Origin: Candidatus Tepidifontimicrobium thermophilum
GTDB taxonomy: Bacteria; Sysuimicrobiota; Sysuimicrobiia; Sysuimicrobiales; Sysuimicrobiaceae
DNA: 64,000 nucleotides
Assembly (NCBI GenBank): GCA_031459915.1
Contig: JAVKHO010000006.1
Span: forward strand, 58,475-122,474
Direction of reading: 5' to 3'
Positions within the stretch are counted from its first letter, which is position 1; each line of letters starts with the position of its first letter. This document shows, in pieces, positions 12,448 through 56,214 of the stretch. The notes beneath the pieces were generated by a model. It was given only the letters and a program-made list of their open reading frames with translations. It had not been told where the DNA came from and did no database searches. Both the position numbers and the translations under genes were made by a program.

Positions 12448-13671
12448 CTAGACCGCGGCCAGCACCTGCCGCTCGAAGTCCTTCAGGGTCGGCCGGATCC
12501 GGATGGCGGGCCGGCCGCCGTCGGACACCGCCTCCAGGGTCTTGAGACCCGCGCCCGTCAGCAGCGCCACCACCACGTCGTCCGCTCCCAGCGCTCCCGC
12601 CTCGGCCAGCTTGCGCAGCACGGCCACGGTGACACCCCCCGCGGTCTCGGCGAAGATCCCCTCCGTCTGAGCCAGTAGCCGCATCCCCTCCACGATCTCC
12701 TCGTCGGTGGCCACCTCGAACACCCCGCCTGTCCTGCGCACCGTCTGCAACGCGTAGTACCCGTCTGCAGGGTTGCCGATGGCAAGGGACTTGGCCACCG
12801 TCTCGGGCCGCACGGGGACCACCTGGCTGTCCCCCCGCCGGTGGGCTGCAGCGATGGGTGCGCAGCCCGCGGCCTGCGCTCCGTGTAGCCTCGGCATGGG
12901 GCCCTCCGCCAGGCCCAGCTGCAGCAGCTCCGCAAACGCCTTTTCGGTCTTGACGAACAGGTTGCCGGAGGCCACAGGCACCACCACGTGGTCGGGTAAC
13001 CTCCACCCCAGCTGCTCGGCCACCTCGAACCCCAGGGTCTTGCAGCCCTCCGAGTAGAAGGGCCGCAGGTTGATGTTCGCGAAGGCCCAGGGGTGCTCGC
13101 CCGCGATCTCGGTGCACAGGCGGTTCACGTCGTCGTACGTCCCTTCCACCTCCACCACCGTGGGGTCGTACACGGAGGTGGTGAGGACCTTACCCGCCTC
13201 CAGTCCCTGGGGCACGAACACTACCGCCCGCATGCCCGCCCGCGCCGCGTGGGCCGCCACCGCGTGGGCAAGGTTCCCGGTGGATGCGCACGCGAGGACC
13301 CGGAACCCGAAGGCCCGGGCCGCGGCTACCGCCACCGCCACCACCCGGTCCTTAAAAGACCAGGTAGGGTTGGTGGTGTCGTTCTTCAGGTACAGGCGGC
13401 GCAGCCCGAGGCGCTCGCCCAACCGCCGGGCCGGGATCAGGGGGGTGAAGCCCGGCTGCAGGTCGTCCTCGGCCGGTTCCACAGGCAACAGGGCACAGTA
13501 CCGCCAGATGGATCGGGGGCCGGACGCGATCCGTTCTCGCGTGGCCTCCCGCAGGCTGGACGCCTCGTACTCCACCTCCAGGGGACCAAAACACCGCTCG
13601 CACACGTACTCTGGGCCCACGGGATGCGGCGTCCCGCATGCCCGACACCGCAGGTGCGCTACCCGTCCCAC
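12448..13671 (-). CDS. thrC: threonine synthase-like PLP enzyme with N-terminal Cys4 zinc-ribbon (ThrC family; physiological reaction uncertain, see findings)
   Basis: GTG 13671 with AGGAGGTG RBS. CRACG...CERC ribbon and PLP-lysine motif PTWSFKDR. 13-nt overlap with thrB. Confidence 0.8.
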   Translation of the reverse strand: MGRVAHLRCRACGTPHPVGPEYVCERCFGPLEVEYEASSLREATRERIASGPRSIWRYCALLPVEPAEDDLQPGFTPLIPARRLGERLGLRRLYLKNDTTNPTWSFKDRVVAVAVAAARAFGFRVLACASTGNLAHAVAAHAARAGMRAVVFVPQGLEAGKVLTTSVYDPTVVEVEGTYDDVNRLCTEIAGEHPWAFANINLRPFYSEGCKTLGFEVAEQLGWRLPDHVVVPVASGNLFVKTEKAFAELLQLGLAEGPMPRLHGAQAAGCAPIAAAHRRGDSQVVPVRPETVAKSLAIGNPADGYYALQTVRRTGGVFEVATDEEIVEGMRLLAQTEGIFAETAGGVTVAVLRKLAEAGALGADDVVVALLTGAGLKTLEAVSDGGRPAIRIRPTLKDFERQVLAAV

Positions 13672-14588
13672 GTTTCACCTCCTGGAGCGTCTTCCACCAC
13701 CGTGCCCCGCACGTCCACGGAGGACACCCTCCACCGGCTGTGTACCCCGTAGCGCGCCAGGGCCGTCCGCATGGCCTCGCCCACCGACTCCGCGCACTCC
13801 GCGGGGCAGAAGGCCACCAGACTGCTGCCTGCCCCGCTCAGCGCCGCCCCCCACGCCCCCGCCTCCCGCGCCGCGGCCACCGCGTCCGCAAACCCGGGCA
13901 CCAGGAGCTCCCGGTAAGGCTGGTGCAGCCGGTCCTGGGTGGCCACCGCCAGCGCGCCGAAGTCCCCGTTGTACAGGGCCGCCACCAGTAGCGCAGCCCG
14001 GCCCGTGTTGAACACCGCGTCCTGCAGGCTCACCTGTGCGGGAAGCCGGGCCCGGGCTTCACCGGTGGGCACCCGCAGCTCCGGCACGCACAGAACGACC
14101 GACGGGAACCGCTCCGGCAGGATTCGCTGCCAGCACACGCCCCCCTCACCATCCCGCACGGCCACCGTGACCCCACCCACCCACGCCGCCACCACATTGT
14201 CCGGGTGCCCTTCCAGCTCCGCGCTCAACCGCACTAAGTCCGCTGGGGACAGGGGGCTGCCCAGCAGCCGGTTGGCCGCGGCGATACCGGCCACCCGGGC
14301 CGCGGCGCTGCTGCCGAGCCCACGGTCCAGGGGGATCCGGTTGAAGCACCGGAACGCGAACGCCACGTCCCGGACGCCCGCGCGGGCTGCCACCGCCTCC
14401 GCAGCTCGGTACACGGTGTTGCGCTCGTCCCGGGGAAGCACGTCCTCCCCCTCTCCCGCCACCTCCACCCGGGGCCGATCCGACAGAGCCGCCTCCACCT
14501 CGTTGCGCAGATCCAGCGCCATCGCGAGGCAGTCGAACCCCGACCCGAGGTTGGCCGAGGTGGCCGGTACCGTCACCCGCAACCGCAT
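13659..14588 (-). CDS. thrB: homoserine kinase (GHMP family)
   Basis: ATG 14588 with GGAGG RBS. VPATSANLGSGFD and IPLDRGLGSSAAA GHMP motifs. Confidence 0.87.
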   Translation of the reverse strand: MRLRVTVPATSANLGSGFDCLAMALDLRNEVEAALSDRPRVEVAGEGEDVLPRDERNTVYRAAEAVAARAGVRDVAFAFRCFNRIPLDRGLGSSAAARVAGIAAANRLLGSPLSPADLVRLSAELEGHPDNVVAAWVGGVTVAVRDGEGGVCWQRILPERFPSVVLCVPELRVPTGEARARLPAQVSLQDAVFNTGRAALLVAALYNGDFGALAVATQDRLHQPYRELLVPGFADAVAAAREAGAWGAALSGAGSSLVAFCPAECAESVGEAMRTALARYGVHSRWRVSSVDVRGTVVEDAPGGETWDG

Positions 14589-14594
14589 TCGGAA

Positions 14595-14790
14595 CCTCCA
14601 GACAACGAGAAGCCCTCCGGCGCCGAAACCCGGCGAACGGAACATCCACCGGAATCCAGCCGCGGAGGGCAACAACCGCCCTTATCTCTCGGAATGCCTT
14701 CCGCGGGAGTTGGCACCTTGCCGGCTGTCCGCCGGTAGGTTGCCGGGGGTCATCGGGCCCGTCCCTCGCCCACTCTGGATAAGGGTGTTG
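14595..14790 (-). promoter_or_regulatory. SAM-I (S-box) riboswitch: aptamer about 14785-14679 plus expression platform leading into thrB
   Basis: The minus strand reads CCCUUAUCCAGAGUGGGCGAGGGACGGGCCCGAUGACCCCCGGCAACC-(P3)-AAGGUGCCAACUCCCGCGG-(P4)-CCGAGAGAUAAGGG. This matches the invariant SAM-I cores (UAUC.AGAG.GG..GAGGGA..GGCCC.AUGA..CCCGGCAACC, GGUGC.AA..CC, AGAUAAG). Downstream stem GCCCUCCG (14670-14663) / CGGAGGGC (14619-14612) is followed by UUCUCGUUGU. Confidence 0.85.
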
Positions 14791-40189: not shown

Positions 40190-41365
40190 TCAACCGCGGC
40201 TGGCGCTGCGGGTGCGCCGCCACAGGGGTGAGGCCCGCCGTAACTCCGCCACCGCCTCGCGCACCCACTCCACCGCGGCGTCCACCTCCGCCTCCGTCGT
40301 CCAGCGGCCTAGGGTGAGCCGCAGGGCGCCCACGGCCCGTTCCGGTGGCAGTCCCATGGCACGTAGGACGTGGGAGGGTTCCAGGCTCCCTGCGGTGCAC
40401 GCGGACCCGCTACTGGCCGCCAGGCCCCGGAGGTCCAGGGCCAAGAGTAGAGACTCGCTTTCCACGCCCTCGAAACAGAAGTGGGCGTTGTTGGGCAGCC
40501 GCTCCGTGGGGTGCCCGTTCAGGAAGGCTCCCTCCACGGCCAGCAACCCGCGCACCAGACGGTCCCTCAGGGCCGAAAGCCGCGCCTGTTCCGCCTCGCG
40601 TTGGGCCAGGGCCAGCTCCACCGCCTTCGCGAATCCCACGATCCCCGGCACGTTCTCCGTTCCGGCCCGACGCCCGCGTTCGTGGGCTCCGCCCCTCAGC
40701 AGCGGCTCGATGCGCGTACCCCGCCGCACGTACAGGAGCCCCACGCCCTTCGGGCCGTACCGCTTGTGGGCGGAGGCGGACAGGAGGTCCACGCCCAGCT
40801 CGTCCACCCGGACGGGCAGCGCCCCGAAGGTCTGCGTGGCGTCGGTGTGAACCAGCACTCCCCTCTCGCGGGCGATGCGGGCGACCTCCGCCACGGGTTG
40901 CACCGTGCCCACCTCGTTGTTGGCGTGCATCACGGAGACCAGCACGGTGTCGTCCCGCAGCGCCCGCCGCACGTCGTCGGGGTCCACGCGGCCGTAGCCG
41001 TCCACGGGCAGGAAGGTGACTTCCCACCCCCGCTGGGCCAGCCACCGGGCGGGCTCCAGCACTGCCCGGTGCTCCACAGAGGACACCACCAAGTGCCGGC
41101 CCCGAGACTCGTGGGCTAGAGCGACCCCGACCAGGGCCCAGTTGTCCGCCTCCGTGGCCCCGCTGGTGAAGGCCACCTCGGACGGCTCGCAACCCAGCGC
41201 CTCGGCCAGGGTGCGCCGGGCCCGGTCCACCGCGGCCCGCGCCTCCTGTCCGAACGTGTGTACGCTACTGGCGTTGCCGAACCGCTCCGTGAAGTAAGGG
41301 CGCATGGCTTCCACCACACGCGGGTCCGTGGGGGTGGTGGCCGCGTAATCCAGGTAGACACGCAC
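40190..41365 (-). CDS. cysteine desulfurase (NifS/IscS class)
   Basis: YLDYAATTP, SAHKRYGPKG (PLP Lys) and SSGSACTAGS (catalytic Cys loop). Confidence 0.88.
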   Translation of the reverse strand: MRVYLDYAATTPTDPRVVEAMRPYFTERFGNASSVHTFGQEARAAVDRARRTLAEALGCEPSEVAFTSGATEADNWALVGVALAHESRGRHLVVSSVEHRAVLEPARWLAQRGWEVTFLPVDGYGRVDPDDVRRALRDDTVLVSVMHANNEVGTVQPVAEVARIARERGVLVHTDATQTFGALPVRVDELGVDLLSASAHKRYGPKGVGLLYVRRGTRIEPLLRGGAHERGRRAGTENVPGIVGFAKAVELALAQREAEQARLSALRDRLVRGLLAVEGAFLNGHPTERLPNNAHFCFEGVESESLLLALDLRGLAASSGSACTAGSLEPSHVLRAMGLPPERAVGALRLTLGRWTTEAEVDAAVEWVREAVAELRRASPLWRRTRSASRG

Positions 41366-41411
41366 GAGTCCATTGTACCCGTGGCACGCGGATTGCTGGA
41401 CGCCCCCACGG

Positions 41412-44400
41412 ATGGCCGACAGAGCACAGCGGTGGCGGCTTCCCTTCCGGCCCCTGGCCCGGGACGAACGCGTCCGGGTGTGGGTGGTGGCCGGCTACGC
41501 GGGTGTGTGCGCGGGCGTGGCGGTGGCGGTGCTCCGCCTGGGTGTCCCCTTCTCGGTGGTGGTGCTGCTGGCGGGTCCCGTCCTGCTCGCCTCCGCGCGC
41601 TTCCCGCAGCGGGTCTACTTGCTCCTGCTGCCTCCCGCAGCCGCCGCCAGCCTCAGCGCGGTGCTGCTGCGTGCACCGGACCTGCGGGAGGCCCTGGTGG
41701 CCTGGGGGGGCCTTGCCGTGACGGTGGTGGTCACTTCGGAAGCCCTGTACCGGCTGGTTCGCTCCCTCCGGTCTGCTCATGAGCAGCTGCGCCGCCGGGC
41801 GGCGTTGCTGGACGCCCTGCACACCACCACCGTGGGCCTGATCGGCGGAGGACCAGCAGAGGGTCTGCTGGAAAACCTCCTGCGCCGCGCCTGCGAGCTG
41901 CTGGAGACCCCTCACGGGAACCTGTTCCTGGTGGAGGGCGACCGGATGCGCTGCCGCTTCGCCCTCGGCGCCACCCGGTGGATGCAGGACGAGGCCCTGG
42001 AGGTCCCGCCCGGCCAGGGCCTGGCCGGCTACGTGTGGCAGACGGGAAGGCCCGTGGTGGTGGAGGACTACACCCGGTGGGAGCGCCGCCTGCAAGACCC
42101 ACGGCTCGCCTTCGTCCGGTCCGCCGCGGCCATGCCCCTGCGGGTGCATGGCCAAGTCACCGGCGCCATCGTGGTGGTGCGCTCGGAACCTGACCGCCCC
42201 TTCAAGCGAGAGGAAGTGGACGTAGTCGAGCGCTTTGCAGAGCTGGCGTCCCTGGTGGCGCAGAACGCGGACCTGTACCGGCGGACCCAGGAGGAACTGG
42301 CGCGCCGCCGGCACGCAGAAGCCGACCTGCGGCACAAACACGAACTGCTCCGTACCGTGCACGCCACCACGGAGGAGCTGCTCCGCGGGACCGACTTTGA
42401 CAGCCTCCTGGCGGCCATCGTGCACCGAGCCACCGCCCTGCTGCGCTCCAGCCACGGGAACCTGTACTTGCGGGAAGGGGACGAGATGCGCTGCCGGGTG
42501 GGGGTCGGTGCGGCCCGCTGGGCCCAGGAAGCCGGCGTCTGCCTGCGGCGCGGGGAGGGGATGGTCGGGCAGGTATGGGAGACCGGTCAGGCCCTGATGG
42601 TCGACGACTACGCGAGCTGGCCGGGCCGCCTGCCTTTCCCGCAGGTGTCCGACCTGGGCCCGGCCCTGACCGTACCCCTGCGGGTGGGTCAGGAGGTGGT
42701 GGGGGCGTTCTTCGTGGCGCGAAACCGGGGAGAGCCCTCCTACAGCGAGGACGAGCTAGACGCCGCGGCCCGCTTCGGCCACCTGGCCTCCCTGGTCCTC
42801 AACAGCGCTTCCCTGTACCGGGCTGCGCGGGACGAACTGGAGAGGCGCAGCCGGGCGGAGTCAGAGCTCCGCCGCCGCCACCAGCTGCTGGAGGCGCTCC
42901 AGGCCACCAGCGTGGCCCTGCTCGGGGGAGCAGAGCTCCAGCAGACCCTGGACCTGGTGGTGCGGCAGGCGTGCGAGCTCCTGGATTGCCGGCACGCGGC
43001 CCTGTACCTGCGGGAGGGAGCCCTGCTCCGCTGCACCGTAGGGGTGGGGATCCTCGCGCAGGCAGCGACCGAGGGGCGCACCTGCGAGAAGGGGAAGGGA
43101 ATCGTGGGGGCAGTGTGGGAGAAGGGCGCGCCGGTGGTCGTGGAGCACTACCCCAGCTGGCCCGGCCGACAGCGGCGCTCGGGAGCTGCGTTCGACAGAC
43201 TCGGGCCGGGGCTGGCAGTACCCCTGTGGTGGGGCACCGAGTATGCGGGCACCTTGTTCCTGGCACGCGATGCCGGGGCTGCGCCGTTCACCGCGGAGGA
43301 GGTCGACGCGGCAGGTCGGTTCGCGCACGCGGCGGCCCTGGCCCTGCACAACGCGCACCTGTACCAGGAGGCCCACGAGGAGCTGACACGGCGGCGGGAC
43401 GCGGAAGCCCGCCTGCGCCGGCGCCAGGAGCTCCTCGAAGCGCTCCACGACACGGCCCACGGCCTGCTGTCGGGCCTGGGCACCGGCGAGCTCTTGCACG
43501 CCATCGTCCAGCGGGCGTGCCAGTTGCTGGGCAGCGGCCACGGCAACCTGTACCTGCTGGAGGGCGGCGTGCTGCGGTGCCGGGTGGGGCTCGGAGCCAT
43601 GGCCTGGGCGGGACGGGAAGGTCTTCAGGTACGGCGGGGGGAAGGCATGGTGGGCCGCGTGTGGGAGACGGGCCAGCCCTTGGTGGTAGAGGACTACAGC
43701 CGTTGGCCCGAAAGGCTGCCGGACCCCCGCTTCGACTCCCTGGGCAGCGCGGTCACCGTTCCCCTGTTCGCCTCCGGGCACTTCGTGGGCGCTTTCTCGG
43801 TGGCCCGGGACCGCTCCGCGCCTGCCTTCACCGCGGAGGAGATCGAGACCGTGGTGCGCTTCGGCCAGCTGGCCTCCCTGGTCCTGCACCACGCGCAGGC
43901 GACGCAGAAGGTGGAGGAGCAGCGGGCCTTCTACGAGGAACTGCTGGACCACGTGCCCTCCGACATCGCGGTGCTGGATCCAGACTTCCGGTACCTGTAC
44001 GTCAACCGGTCCGCGGTACGTGACCCCGAGCTGCGGCGGTGGGTGGTGGGCCGCGACGACTTCGAGCTGTGCGCCCGCGTGGGCCAGGACCGTTCGGTGG
44101 CGGAGGTCCGCCGGCACCACTACCTCCAGGCCACGGCGGGGCGAAGGACGCTGGAGTTCGAGGAGGAGATCCGAGGGCGTGACGGCAAGGCACGTTACTT
44201 CCTGCGGCGGGTCCACCCCGTGGTAGACCGGGAAGGTCGCGTCGTCCGCGTGATCGGGTACGGGGTGAACATCACGGACCGCAAGCGCGCCGAGCTGCGG
44301 CTCGCCCACCTGGCCCTGCACGACGCCCTGACGGGCCTGCCGAACCGGACGCTCTTCCTGGACCGGCTCGGGCACGCGCTGGAACGGGCCAGGCGGACGG

Positions 44401-45671
44401 GCCGTCGAGTGGCGGTGCTGTTCGTGGACTTGGACCGGTTCAAGCTGGTGAACGACACCCTCGGCCACGACGCGGGCGACCGCCTCCTCCAGCAGGTGGC
44501 GGAGCGGCTGCGGTCGTGCCTGCGCGGCTCGGACACCCTCGCCCGTCTGGCGGGGGACGAATTCACGGTCCTGCTGGAGGACGTGGACGGGCCGGACGAC
44601 GCGTTGCTGGTGGCGCAGCGGGTCCAAGCGGCATTTCGCGAGCCGTTCCACCTGGCGGGGCAAGCAGTGTACACCACCGCCAGCGTGGGGATCTCCCTCT
44701 CGGGCCCGCAGACGCAGGGCGCGGAGGACCTCCTCCAGCAGTCCGACACCGCTATGTACCGCGCCAAAGCGCTGGGCCGCAACCGCTACCAGCTGTTTGA
44801 CGAGGCCCTGGGCCGGGCCGCCGCCCTGCAGGCGCAGCTGGAAACCGACCTGCGGCGGGCCCTGGAGCGGGGAGAGTTCGTCCTGCACTACCAGCCGGTG
44901 GTGCGCATCGCGGACCGCCGGGTGGTAGAGATGGAGGCCCTGGTCCGGTGGCAGCACCCCCAGCGCGGGCTGCTGGCGCCCGCGGACTTCCTCAGCGGGC
45001 TGGAAGCCAGCGGGCTCGTACCGCAGCTGAACGCCTGGGTCCTGAGGGAAGCGTGCCGCGCAGCCCGGCGGTGGAGGGACCGAGTGGGCGACGATGCACC
45101 GGCGGTGAGCGTCAACCTTGCCGCGGCAGACCTAGCGGACCCGTCGCTGCCGGAACGGCTCCGCGCCGCCCTGCAGGCCTCCGGGCTGGAGCCGAAGGCC
45201 TTGCGGGTAGAGGTCCCAGAGCGGGTGCTGACCCTCCTGGGCTCCGACGGTTATGAGCGGATACGCCAGCTGGGCGAGATGGACATCGCCCTGCACGTGG
45301 ACGACTTCGCGGCGAGTTCGTCCCTTCGGGTGCTGCGGGAGCTGCCGGTCCGGGCGGTGAAGCTGGAACAGGCGTGGTTTGCGAATTGGCGGGGCGACCC
45401 TCCCCACGGCGAGCTCCTCCGGGCGGTGGTGAGCACAGCCGGGGAGCTGGGGTTGGATCTCGTGGCGAAGGGAGTCGAGGATCCCGCATGCCTCGAGCGC
45501 GTGGTCGAACTCGGGTTCCCCTATGCCCAGGGGTACGCCCTCGCCCGCCCGATGGACCTGAGAGAAGCCGAGCGTTTCCTGGGCCTGGGAGAACAAGGAG
45601 CGGGCGCCCTTCCGGGCACCCGCTCCCCAGCCGCCGGAACGTCCGAGCCGAGCCGTTCCGGAAGCGGCTGA
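41412..45671 (+). CDS. membrane-anchored signalling protein: TM region, 4 tandem GAF modules, PAS, GGDEF (AGDEF), EAL
   Basis: N-terminal hydrophobic stretches. Four GAF-like modules, each followed by an R/E-rich linker. PAS FYEELLDHVPSDIAVLD. RGSD-x5-AGDEF at 44550-44564. EAL at 44934-44942. The start is uncertain (ATG 41373 or 41412). Confidence 0.85.
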   Translation: MADRAQRWRLPFRPLARDERVRVWVVAGYAGVCAGVAVAVLRLGVPFSVVVLLAGPVLLASARFPQRVYLLLLPPAAAASLSAVLLRAPDLREALVAWGGLAVTVVVTSEALYRLVRSLRSAHEQLRRRAALLDALHTTTVGLIGGGPAEGLLENLLRRACELLETPHGNLFLVEGDRMRCRFALGATRWMQDEALEVPPGQGLAGYVWQTGRPVVVEDYTRWERRLQDPRLAFVRSAAAMPLRVHGQVTGAIVVVRSEPDRPFKREEVDVVERFAELASLVAQNADLYRRTQEELARRRHAEADLRHKHELLRTVHATTEELLRGTDFDSLLAAIVHRATALLRSSHGNLYLREGDEMRCRVGVGAARWAQEAGVCLRRGEGMVGQVWETGQALMVDDYASWPGRLPFPQVSDLGPALTVPLRVGQEVVGAFFVARNRGEPSYSEDELDAAARFGHLASLVLNSASLYRAARDELERRSRAESELRRRHQLLEALQATSVALLGGAELQQTLDLVVRQACELLDCRHAALYLREGALLRCTVGVGILAQAATEGRTCEKGKGIVGAVWEKGAPVVVEHYPSWPGRQRRSGAAFDRLGPGLAVPLWWGTEYAGTLFLARDAGAAPFTAEEVDAAGRFAHAAALALHNAHLYQEAHEELTRRRDAEARLRRRQELLEALHDTAHGLLSGLGTGELLHAIVQRACQLLGSGHGNLYLLEGGVLRCRVGLGAMAWAGREGLQVRRGEGMVGRVWETGQPLVVEDYSRWPERLPDPRFDSLGSAVTVPLFASGHFVGAFSVARDRSAPAFTAEEIETVVRFGQLASLVLHHAQATQKVEEQRAFYEELLDHVPSDIAVLDPDFRYLYVNRSAVRDPELRRWVVGRDDFELCARVGQDRSVAEVRRHHYLQATAGRRTLEFEEEIRGRDGKARYFLRRVHPVVDREGRVVRVIGYGVNITDRKRAELRLAHLALHDALTGLPNRTLFLDRLGHALERARRTGRRVAVLFVDLDRFKLVNDTLGHDAGDRLLQQVAERLRSCLRGSDTLARLAGDEFTVLLEDVDGPDDALLVAQRVQAAFREPFHLAGQAVYTTASVGISLSGPQTQGAEDLLQQSDTAMYRAKALGRNRYQLFDEALGRAAALQAQLETDLRRALERGEFVLHYQPVVRIADRRVVEMEALVRWQHPQRGLLAPADFLSGLEASGLVPQLNAWVLREACRAARRWRDRVGDDAPAVSVNLAAADLADPSLPERLRAALQASGLEPKALRVEVPERVLTLLGSDGYERIRQLGEMDIALHVDDFAASSSLRVLRELPVRAVKLEQAWFANWRGDPPHGELLRAVVSTAGELGLDLVAKGVEDPACLERVVELGFPYAQGYALARPMDLREAERFLGLGEQGAGALPGTRSPAAGTSEPSRSGSG
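41770..43915 (+). repeat. protein-level tandem repeat: four roughly 180-aa GAF + coiled-coil-linker modules
   Basis: The His codon of the conserved (P/S/R/G)H(G/A)(N/A)L(F/Y)L motif recurs at 41913, 42453, 42993 and 43539, giving periods of 540, 540 and 546 nt. Each module ends in L..R...AE..LR.....LLEAL. Confidence 0.75.
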
Positions 45672-56127: not shown

Positions 56128-56214
56128 GCCGGAGTGGCGGAACGGCAGACGCGCTGCGTTCAGGGCGCAGTGGGCGCAAAGCCCGTGGGGGTTCAAATCC
56201 CTCCTCCGGCACCA
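56128..56214 (+). tRNA. tRNA-Leu (anticodon CAG), class II with long variable arm, CCA encoded
   Basis: Hand-folded:
- acceptor GCCGGAG/CTCCGGC
- D stem GCG/CGC
- anticodon stem CTGCG/CGCAG with loop TTCAGGG
- variable arm GGGC-GCAAA-GCCC
- T arm GGGGG-TTCAAAT-CCCTC
- discriminator A followed by CCA. Confidence 0.9.

Follow-up and report, generated by a model that had tools for sequence, protein, structure and literature searches.

A SAM-I riboswitch ahead of thrB and a metM-like gene in an Armatimonadota-like genome: a predicted methionine-branch operon

Introduction

What does a riboswitch for S-adenosylmethionine (SAM) control when the two genes behind it read as homoserine kinase and threonine synthase? 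The question is raised by a 64-kb stretch of contig JAVKHO010000006.1 (71% G+C; hereafter the window), which comes from a metagenome-assembled genome (MAG) described as Armatimonadota-like. In it, a SAM-I (S-box) element on the minus strand heads an operon of thrB and a ThrC-like gene. A preliminary description of the locus left two alternatives: either the ThrC-like protein is an O-phosphohomoserine-dependent homocysteine enzyme of the MetM type, or SAM throttles threonine synthesis. The first is supported by the clade to which the protein belongs, by linkage of its relatives to sulfur-carrier genes and SAM-I elements, by a T-box with an AUG specifier and by paralogy in Nonomuraea; the second found no support. 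We put at about 0.72 the probability that this is a SAM-repressed two-gene operon of the methionine branch, with a ThrC-like product that is predicted to be a MetM-type homocysteine enzyme.

The MetM route is a recent addition, first reported from Streptomyces in 2024, and the family proves here to be widespread and nearly always annotated as threonine synthase. According to the GapMind 2026 preprint, which cites Hasebe et al. 2024 (Appl Environ Microbiol 90:e01247-24), S. albulus forms homocysteine with MetM, a homologue of ThrC that uses O-phosphohomoserine and the thiocarboxylate of the carrier MetO. The preprint also names MoeZ and Mec as helpers of the route and calls MetM "often misannotated" as threonine synthase. 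PMC12172450 places a SAM riboswitch upstream of S. albulus metM. The MetM enzyme to which the preliminary description had pointed is that of Hasebe et al. 2024, as both sources cite it. A SAM riboswitch before metM has already been published, and the arrangement in the window is less novel than was first implied. What sets the predicted MetM-type pathway of the window apart is its occurrence in a new phylum, the presence of thrB in the operon, and the unlinked carrier gene.

A SAM-I Riboswitch Heads the thrB Operon

Rfam cmscan matched the SAM-I model (RF00162) to positions 14785-14679 of the minus strand, exactly where the preliminary description had placed the aptamer. The match, at 82.2 bits and E 7.6e-18, exceeds the gathering score of 44.4, covers model positions 1-108 of 108 without truncation, has a complete P1-P4, and is the sole riboswitch in the whole window. 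Homologous loci are cited by L number throughout. Aptamers occupy the same position in L003, L005, L006 and L007 (76-86 bits), and also in L091 and L092; every relative of the window's lineage that we examined has kept one.

The expression platform follows on the same strand and consists of a terminator hairpin, GCCCUCCG...CGGAGGGC (14670-14612), and a U-rich tail, UUCUCGUUGU (14611-14602). RNAfold assigns this perfect hairpin of 59 nt -47.8 kcal/mol, with GCCCUCC/GGAGGGC as its outer stem, and the minimum free energy (MFE) structure of the whole leader includes it. The Shine-Dalgarno sequence of thrB, GGAGG (14599-14595), lies 6 nt before the ATG at 14588 and is unpaired in the predicted MFE structure of the terminator segment. 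The thrB gene (309 aa; 14588-13659, minus strand) overlaps by 13 nt (13659-13671) the ThrC-like gene (407 aa; 13671-12448, minus strand), which starts with GTG behind a GGAGG of its own. This layout agrees in stem, tail, ribosome-binding site, start codon and overlap with what the preliminary description had reported; that the SAM-I element controls the operon is a prediction from sequence.

The thrB product is a predicted homoserine kinase and, as such, would supply O-phosphohomoserine. It scores 242.2 bits with TIGR00191 (cutoff 168.25) and 201.9 with NF002288 (cutoff 194), and contains the GHMP_kinases_N (PF00288) and GHMP_kinases_C (PF08544) domains.

We folded the leaders of ten Armatimonadota-like loci (the window, L003, L005-L008, L011, L014, L091 and L092). 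A stem of the CCCUCC/GGAGGG type directly follows the aptamer in all ten, taking the form CCCUCC/GGGGGG with a G·U pair in L003, and the base pairs flanking it vary between lineages. Tails are U-rich in the relatives, eight of nine having a run of 4-7 U. In the window, the 5′ arm of the hairpin (GCCCU) is complementary to AGGGC (14683-14679), the last bases of the P1 3′ strand; the two could pair instead over 5 bp, as a short antiterminator. We infer that transcription would terminate before thrB in a SAM-dependent manner. Classical competition between the P1 3′ strand and the terminator 5′ arm is the best-supported model of the switch and is preferred over a pairing with the P4 region. The latter, an 11-nt pairing between the P4 region and the terminator 5′ arm (10 of 11 pairs), was dropped because it had no obvious counterpart in L005, the sole relative inspected for it by eye.

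The ThrC-Like Protein Groups Apart from Canonical Threonine Synthases

Pfam finds only a PALP fold in the ThrC-like protein (245.9 bits). The protein carries an SFKD motif whose lysine, K107, is the residue that binds pyridoxal 5′-phosphate (PLP). The solved structures nearest to it share 37-42% of its residues (E 1e-51 to 1e-55) and are the ThrC proteins of Thermus (1UIM, T. thermophilus), Aquifex (2ZSJ, A. aeolicus), Bacillus (6CGQ, B. subtilis) and Mycobacterium (2D1F, M. tuberculosis). With these canonical enzymes it shares the fold, the SFKD motif and, as predicted here, the substrate. It also passes TIGR00260, the thrC equivalog (272.2 bits against a cutoff of 167.1), and its standard annotation is threonine synthase. 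With the longer PRK08197 model, NF006050, it reaches 284.5 bits and stays under the cutoff of 303. The closest database relatives are MAG proteins labelled "threonine synthase [Armatimonadota bacterium]".

The TIGR00260 score, the database label given to the whole family and a thrB that encodes a standard homoserine kinase are what one would expect of an ordinary thrB-thrC threonine operon under SAM control, in which SAM throttles the O-phosphohomoserine node. We consider this extremely improbable in view of the phylogeny and residues of the protein, described next, and of the genes and regulators that accompany its orthologues.

We aligned 86 family members with solved ThrC structures and built a neighbour-joining tree with 30 bootstraps, using five ThrCs from the PDB and two haloarchaeal zinc-ribbon "ThrC" proteins as outgroups. 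The family was split from the five PDB enzymes and the two haloarchaeal proteins in 30/30 bootstraps. Nesting of the window protein inside verified threonine synthases, which the preliminary description had named as one part of a result that would speak against its reading, is contradicted by every replicate. With family members the window protein shares 53-76% of its residues, with the five solved ThrCs 30-42%.

Family-specific positions were defined as those identical in the four bacterial ThrCs that are replaced, and at least 95% conserved, in carrier-linked family members. There are 23 such positions, and at every one of them the window protein matches the family. Beside the PLP lysine, a glycine is replaced by tryptophan, so that canonical NPTGSFKDRGM becomes NPT(W/H)SFKDRVV in the family and NPTWSFKDRVV in the window. 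Canonical STGNT reads STGNL, NPxR reads RPxY, GNAGN within PVGNAGN reads ASGN within PVASGN, and IGNPASW reads IGNPADG. Over all family-conserved positions, the window protein keeps 129/130, as against 53-76/130 in the outgroups. From the separate clade, the 23 replaced residues, and the sulfur-carrier linkage, methionine-type regulation and Nonomuraea paralogy described below, we conclude that the window protein is, as far as its sequence can tell, not a canonical threonine synthase. TIGR00260 evidently also captures MetM paralogues.

A further difference from the canonical enzymes is an N-terminal Cys4 ribbon (C9, C12, C24 and C27), which is invariant in 12 relatives and absent from the nearest solved ThrCs. 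The ribbon that the preliminary description had noted is indeed present; its use as a marker of MetM was rejected, because haloarchaeal "thrC" genes of another motif group carry it too and it is not diagnostic alone. Those genes lie on haloarchaeal plasmids (L089:2995-4251 and L090:2995-4254), are annotated "thrC" and, with their N-terminal zinc ribbon, make up a motif group of their own, the third. Their motifs are NPTGCFKD, STGNA, SMGDGC and VGRPRN, and they are 34-37% identical to the window protein. No ThiS gene stands beside either of them.

Sulfur-Carrier Genes and Methionine Regulation Accompany the Family

Among the matches listed from representative genomes of GTDB, we analyzed 80 loci with 54-66% identity (L008-L087). 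They come from at least eight phyla, including Chloroflexota, Actinomycetota, Nitrospirota, Aquificota, Armatimonadota and Planctomycetota. In 66 of these 80 listed loci, the next open reading frame (ORF) downstream on the same strand is ThiS-like, that is MetO-like, at a median gap of 36 nt. Other recurrent neighbours in the listed loci are a ThiF-type E1 (13 loci), a Prok-JAB protease (10), a CysK/CysM-like PALP enzyme (12), NIL-domain proteins (7) and carboxymuconolactone-decarboxylase-family proteins (13), the last either beside ThiS or in frame with it. ThiS, ThiF-type E1, Prok-JAB and the CysK/CysM-like enzyme make up the toolkit of protein-thiocarboxylate sulfur transfer, and their recurrence suggests that one carrier may serve both cysteine and homocysteine synthesis. 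Where the canonical ThrCs have hom and thrB alone as partners, this family has sulfur-transfer genes. Among the MetO-like proteins, 46 of 75 end exactly at Gly-Gly; most others have C-terminal extensions of 1-20 residues (...AMAGGREERG in L006; 19 additional residues in L007), which would need trimming of the JAMM type.

Regulation points the same way. In 43/80 listed loci, the metM-like gene is directly preceded by a SAM-I element on its own strand; the 11 weakest matches were all reconfirmed by Rfam, and 23 of the loci in which our model found none were SAM-I-free by Rfam as well. SAM-II elements (RF01726, 46-47 bits) were seen in two Leptospirillum/Nitrospirae MAGs (L025:1339-1400 and L045:1337-1398), each on the strand of the metM-like gene and some 4.6 kb ahead of it.

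A different class of regulator precedes the gene in an actinobacterial MAG (SURF_47, QZJE01000003.1), where a T-box (L016:5664-5918; RF00230, 102 bits) stands directly upstream of a metM-like gene and ThiS. On its 3′ side, the specifier loop has the sequence GAACAUGA, in which AUG (Met) precedes the conserved purine; the antiterminator bulge is UGGU. The specifier offers no threonine codon in any register. Read in this way, the T-box is independent regulatory evidence of a methionine role for the family, which is then tied to methionine by three independent lines: the carrier with its E1/JAMM neighbours, the SAM-I riboswitches, and the T-box with AUG.

The family also occurs side by side with canonical ThrC. 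In Nonomuraea gerenzanensis (L088, NZ_LT559118.1; an 11.85-Mb chromosome filed as "plasmid I" in PLSDB and nearly unannotated), a SAM-I element (68.7 bits), a metM-like gene and a 91-aa ThiS-family gene stand in a row at about 11.81 Mb. Nine Mb off on the same chromosome, at 2503899-2504801, lies a canonical ThrC that is 66.6% identical to the M. tuberculosis enzyme. The Nonomuraea aptamer ends 25 nt before the start codon and probably acts by translational control, unlike the window riboswitch with its terminator hairpin. In A. aeolicus, likewise, a MAG holds a family member (L033), whereas the solved ThrC of that species (2zsj) falls in the canonical group.

The pairing of kinase and metM-like gene recurs in a Planctomycetota MAG (JBBTCT010000014.1; L087:3425-7200), in which SAM-I, a homoserine dehydrogenase gene (PF00742), thrB and a metM-like gene run in one direction. 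It amounts to the window's operon with a third gene added, and no ThiS gene was found within 6 kb of it. When the metabolism of uncultured phyla is reconstructed, the genes of "thrB-thrC" operons behind S-boxes should accordingly be re-annotated as belonging to the methionine branch.

A Model for the Operon and the Evidence Against It

In the model that we favor, abundant SAM would bind the SAM-I aptamer and lock P1, and the GCCCUCC/GGAGGGC hairpin with its U-rich tail would then form and stop transcription before thrB. When SAM is scarce, the P1 3′ strand would instead pair with the 5′ arm of the hairpin as an antiterminator, and the operon would be transcribed, with translation of thrB and the ThrC-like gene presumably coupled through their 13-nt overlap. 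ThrB would convert homoserine to O-phosphohomoserine, and the MetM-type PLP enzyme would exchange the γ-phosphate for sulfur, yielding homocysteine, from which methionine and SAM derive. Sulfur would most likely be donated by a thiocarboxylated ThiS/MoaD-type carrier (MetO-like), whose gene we place elsewhere in the genome because none lies within the 64 kb. The aptamer, the hairpin, the identities of the genes, the family placement and the comparative linkage are direct observations; SAM-dependent termination, the formation of homocysteine by the enzyme, and which sulfur donor it uses and where that donor is encoded are predictions.

Besides the TIGR00260 match, several points weigh against this model. 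Some concern the leader: the U tract of the window is interrupted and degraded (UUCUCGUUGU, compared with UUUUUUUG in relatives), and RNAfold predicts terminator and aptamer together without ligand, with no clearly more stable antiterminator. The loop of the window's hairpin also holds an inserted extra helix of 45 nt, where L091, L092 and L005-L008 have a loop of 4-10 nt; with the degraded U tract, this insert may make termination efficiency different from that of the relatives. Others concern the carrier. A tblastn search of the 64 kb with three MetO-like proteins found no MetO-like gene (best E 0.2), and Pfam scans of the window's main ORFs found no ThiS, ThiF or JAB domain. A hidden Markov model (HMM) of 75 MetO-like sequences, run over the window with --max, likewise gave a best E of only 0.53. 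The preliminary description had noted that no sulfur carrier is adjacent, and by both searches this holds for the window as a whole.

The remaining points concern the enzyme. Orthology of the window protein to the characterized S. albulus MetM (contig BHXC01000007) rests on a proxy, the Nonomuraea protein, whose locus reproduces the published architecture and which is 53% identical to the window's. The proxy shows 34.6% identity to B. subtilis ThrC, in agreement with the 33% reported for S. albulus MetM. A homology search with the Nonomuraea protein listed at least 120 matches, every one from Streptosporangiales, and the plasmid collection contained no copy from Streptomyces. In addition, PMC12172450 describes a Microcystis "ThrC" (PCC 7806), 51.6% identical to MetM and neighboured by a metO-like gene, that has threonine synthase and deaminase activity and shows no clear MetM function in vivo.

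The Microcystis homologue opens a further explanation, namely that the window's enzyme is a bifunctional or moonlighting ThrC-like protein (threonine synthase plus deaminase) or catalyzes some other γ-replacement, such as plant-like cystathionine formation with cysteine. Fold-type II PLP enzymes are plastic in their chemistry, and the Microcystis protein, with a metO-like gene beside it, is reported to combine the two activities. However, SAM/Met-type regulation across phyla argues for a product of the methionine branch, the Microcystis work (PMC12172450) included no test with a carrier thiocarboxylate, and nothing in the window suggests a cystathionine β-lyase partner. Moonlighting as threonine synthase and deaminase is possible for some family members; as an account of the window's enzyme, we regard this explanation as very unlikely.

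Loss of the Linked Carrier Gene in the Window's Sub-Clade

Is the missing carrier gene a clue to a different chemistry, or has it merely moved? In L005, L006 and L007 (64-66% identity), a ThiS-family gene (PF02597) comes right after the metM-like gene and SAM-I comes before, with thrB present in two of the three. The order thrB-metM-metO is found in L005, L007, L008, L014 and L038, and the window's thrB-metM pair corresponds to this operon with metO left out. The tree places the window and L003 inside a clade of ten, and all eight other members have a carrier gene beside metM. The order SAM-I-thrB-metM-GNAT-UDG (the last two an acetyltransferase gene and a uracil-DNA glycosylase gene) is common to the window and its relatives at 70-76% identity, L003 (GCA_031432495.1), L091 (JGI 3300044954) and L092 (JGI 3300025105); in these three relatives, the 6-10 kb around metM contain no ThiS-like ORF.

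We read the absent metO linkage as a derived loss, on the grounds that the carrier is adjacent in most of the listed loci and in those eight clade members, and it appears to have come about by rearrangement in the ancestor of the sub-clade. Rearrangement is suggested because a "Germane" gene, which directly follows metO in sister lineages, is displaced to 5-6 kb further on in L091 and L092. All four members of the metO-less sub-clade keep 127-129 of the 130 family-conserved residues. Because these residues, the riboswitch and thrB are retained, the metM-like gene would still be under selection.

One residue departs from this pattern. In the zinc ribbon (CRECG in the family), E11A occurs in all four members of the metO-less sub-clade, at codon 13641-13639 in the window. 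Residue 11 is glutamate in 70 of 71 carrier-linked members; the carrier-linked L006 has alanine, and the unlinked L072 has asparagine. This distribution gives a weak hint that the zinc ribbon may contact the carrier.

The same observations can be turned toward an enzyme of this family that works here independently of a dedicated carrier, with free sulfide or a borrowed general carrier (CysO, MoaD or ThiS), in which case thrB-metM would be a self-sufficient two-gene module that leads from homoserine to homocysteine. The window, L003, L091 and L092 lack a linked metO while enzyme, thrB and riboswitch are conserved, and E11A is common to all four. Unlinked metM recurs, moreover, in 13/80 listed loci, three of which have SAM-I (L041, L072 and L087). 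On the other hand, unlinking of genes is common and is no evidence on use, all other family-conserved residues are retained, and E11A is also found in L006, which has metO. The published enzyme, moreover, is described in the GapMind 2026 preprint as MetO-thiocarboxylate-dependent. On balance we find carrier independence unlikely and prefer a MetO-like carrier encoded elsewhere. Were carrier independence true and the operon's thrB the genome's sole homoserine kinase gene, the O-phosphohomoserine that feeds threonine synthesis would come under SAM control too. An operon that has thrB and no metO nearby is in either case a natural test case for how strictly the enzyme needs its carrier.

Comparison with Known Systems

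The window shares with the S-box regulon of Bacillota the aptamer class and the predicted termination-antitermination design, in which P1 3′ strand and terminator 5′ arm compete. It differs in phylum and in its targets, which are thrB and metM in place of genes of the metK/metE/metI/yitJ type.

In plants, cystathionine γ-synthase uses O-phosphohomoserine, and SAM activates threonine synthase allosterically. There, as predicted for the window, O-phosphohomoserine is the branch metabolite between methionine and threonine and SAM sets the flux. In the window, by contrast, SAM would lower the kinase and the sulfur-inserting enzyme at the RNA level, and the sulfur step would fall to another enzyme family.

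Protein-thiocarboxylate-dependent synthesis of cysteine or homocysteine is known from CysO-CysM-Mec of Mycobacterium tuberculosis and from HcyS/HcyD/HcyF-MetY of Wolinella succinogenes. These systems and the MetM route have in common that a phosphorylated or acylated amino acid serves as precursor, that sulfur comes as the thiocarboxylate of a ThiS/MoaD-type protein, and that a PLP enzyme of fold type II works with helpers of the JAMM and E1 kinds. The window differs from these systems in that its enzyme is a ThrC-like paralogue and not CysM or MetY, the predicted substrate is O-phosphohomoserine, and the helper genes are absent from the window.

The closest counterpart is MetM/MetO of S. albulus. 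In both, a PLP enzyme homologous to ThrC carries the annotation threonine synthase, its gene has a SAM riboswitch upstream, and O-phosphohomoserine is made, in the window's case presumably, by ThrB; orthologues in the sister lineages and in Nonomuraea have a ThiS-type gene immediately downstream. The window differs in having thrB inside the riboswitch operon, in the absence of metO, moeZ and mec from its 64 kb, and in its host, which is an Armatimonadota-like MAG and not an actinomycete.

Neighboring Genes and Other Features of the Window

Upstream of the riboswitch lies an adenine-deaminase-like gene (16603-14840, minus strand; Adenine_deam_C, 136 bits), the gene that the preliminary description had called ade. 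Its stop codon is overlapped by a promoter-like TTGACA (14843-14838) that is followed, after a 17-nt spacer, by TAGCGT (14820-14815), the whole spanning 14843-14815 of the minus strand. A consensus promoter scan did not report this pair, and its -10 hexamer fits at 3/6 positions only. It may be a possible but weak promoter of the thrB leader.

Downstream, a 95-nt gap in which no obvious terminator was seen separates the metM-like gene from a GNAT acetyltransferase gene (12352-11900, minus strand), and the gene for a family-4 uracil-DNA glycosylase (UDG; 11898-10996, minus strand) comes next. The two genes occupy the place that metO has in sister lineages and may be co-transcribed with the operon. 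They were rejected as functional partners, since in sister lineages a GNAT gene, which may be the counterpart of the window's, lies several genes further downstream. They look like synteny neighbors brought beside metM by the rearrangement that removed metO.

Elsewhere in the window, a class-V aminotransferase gene of cysteine-desulfurase-like type (PF00266, 285 bits; 40190-41494, minus strand) adjoins nuoA and is the window's only candidate for sulfur mobilization. The plus strand encodes, at 41358-45671, a 1437-aa signaling protein with multiple GAF/PAS/GGDEF/EAL domains and, at 56128-56211, a tRNA of 84 nt; its variable arm is long, and we read its anticodon by eye as CAG (Leu).

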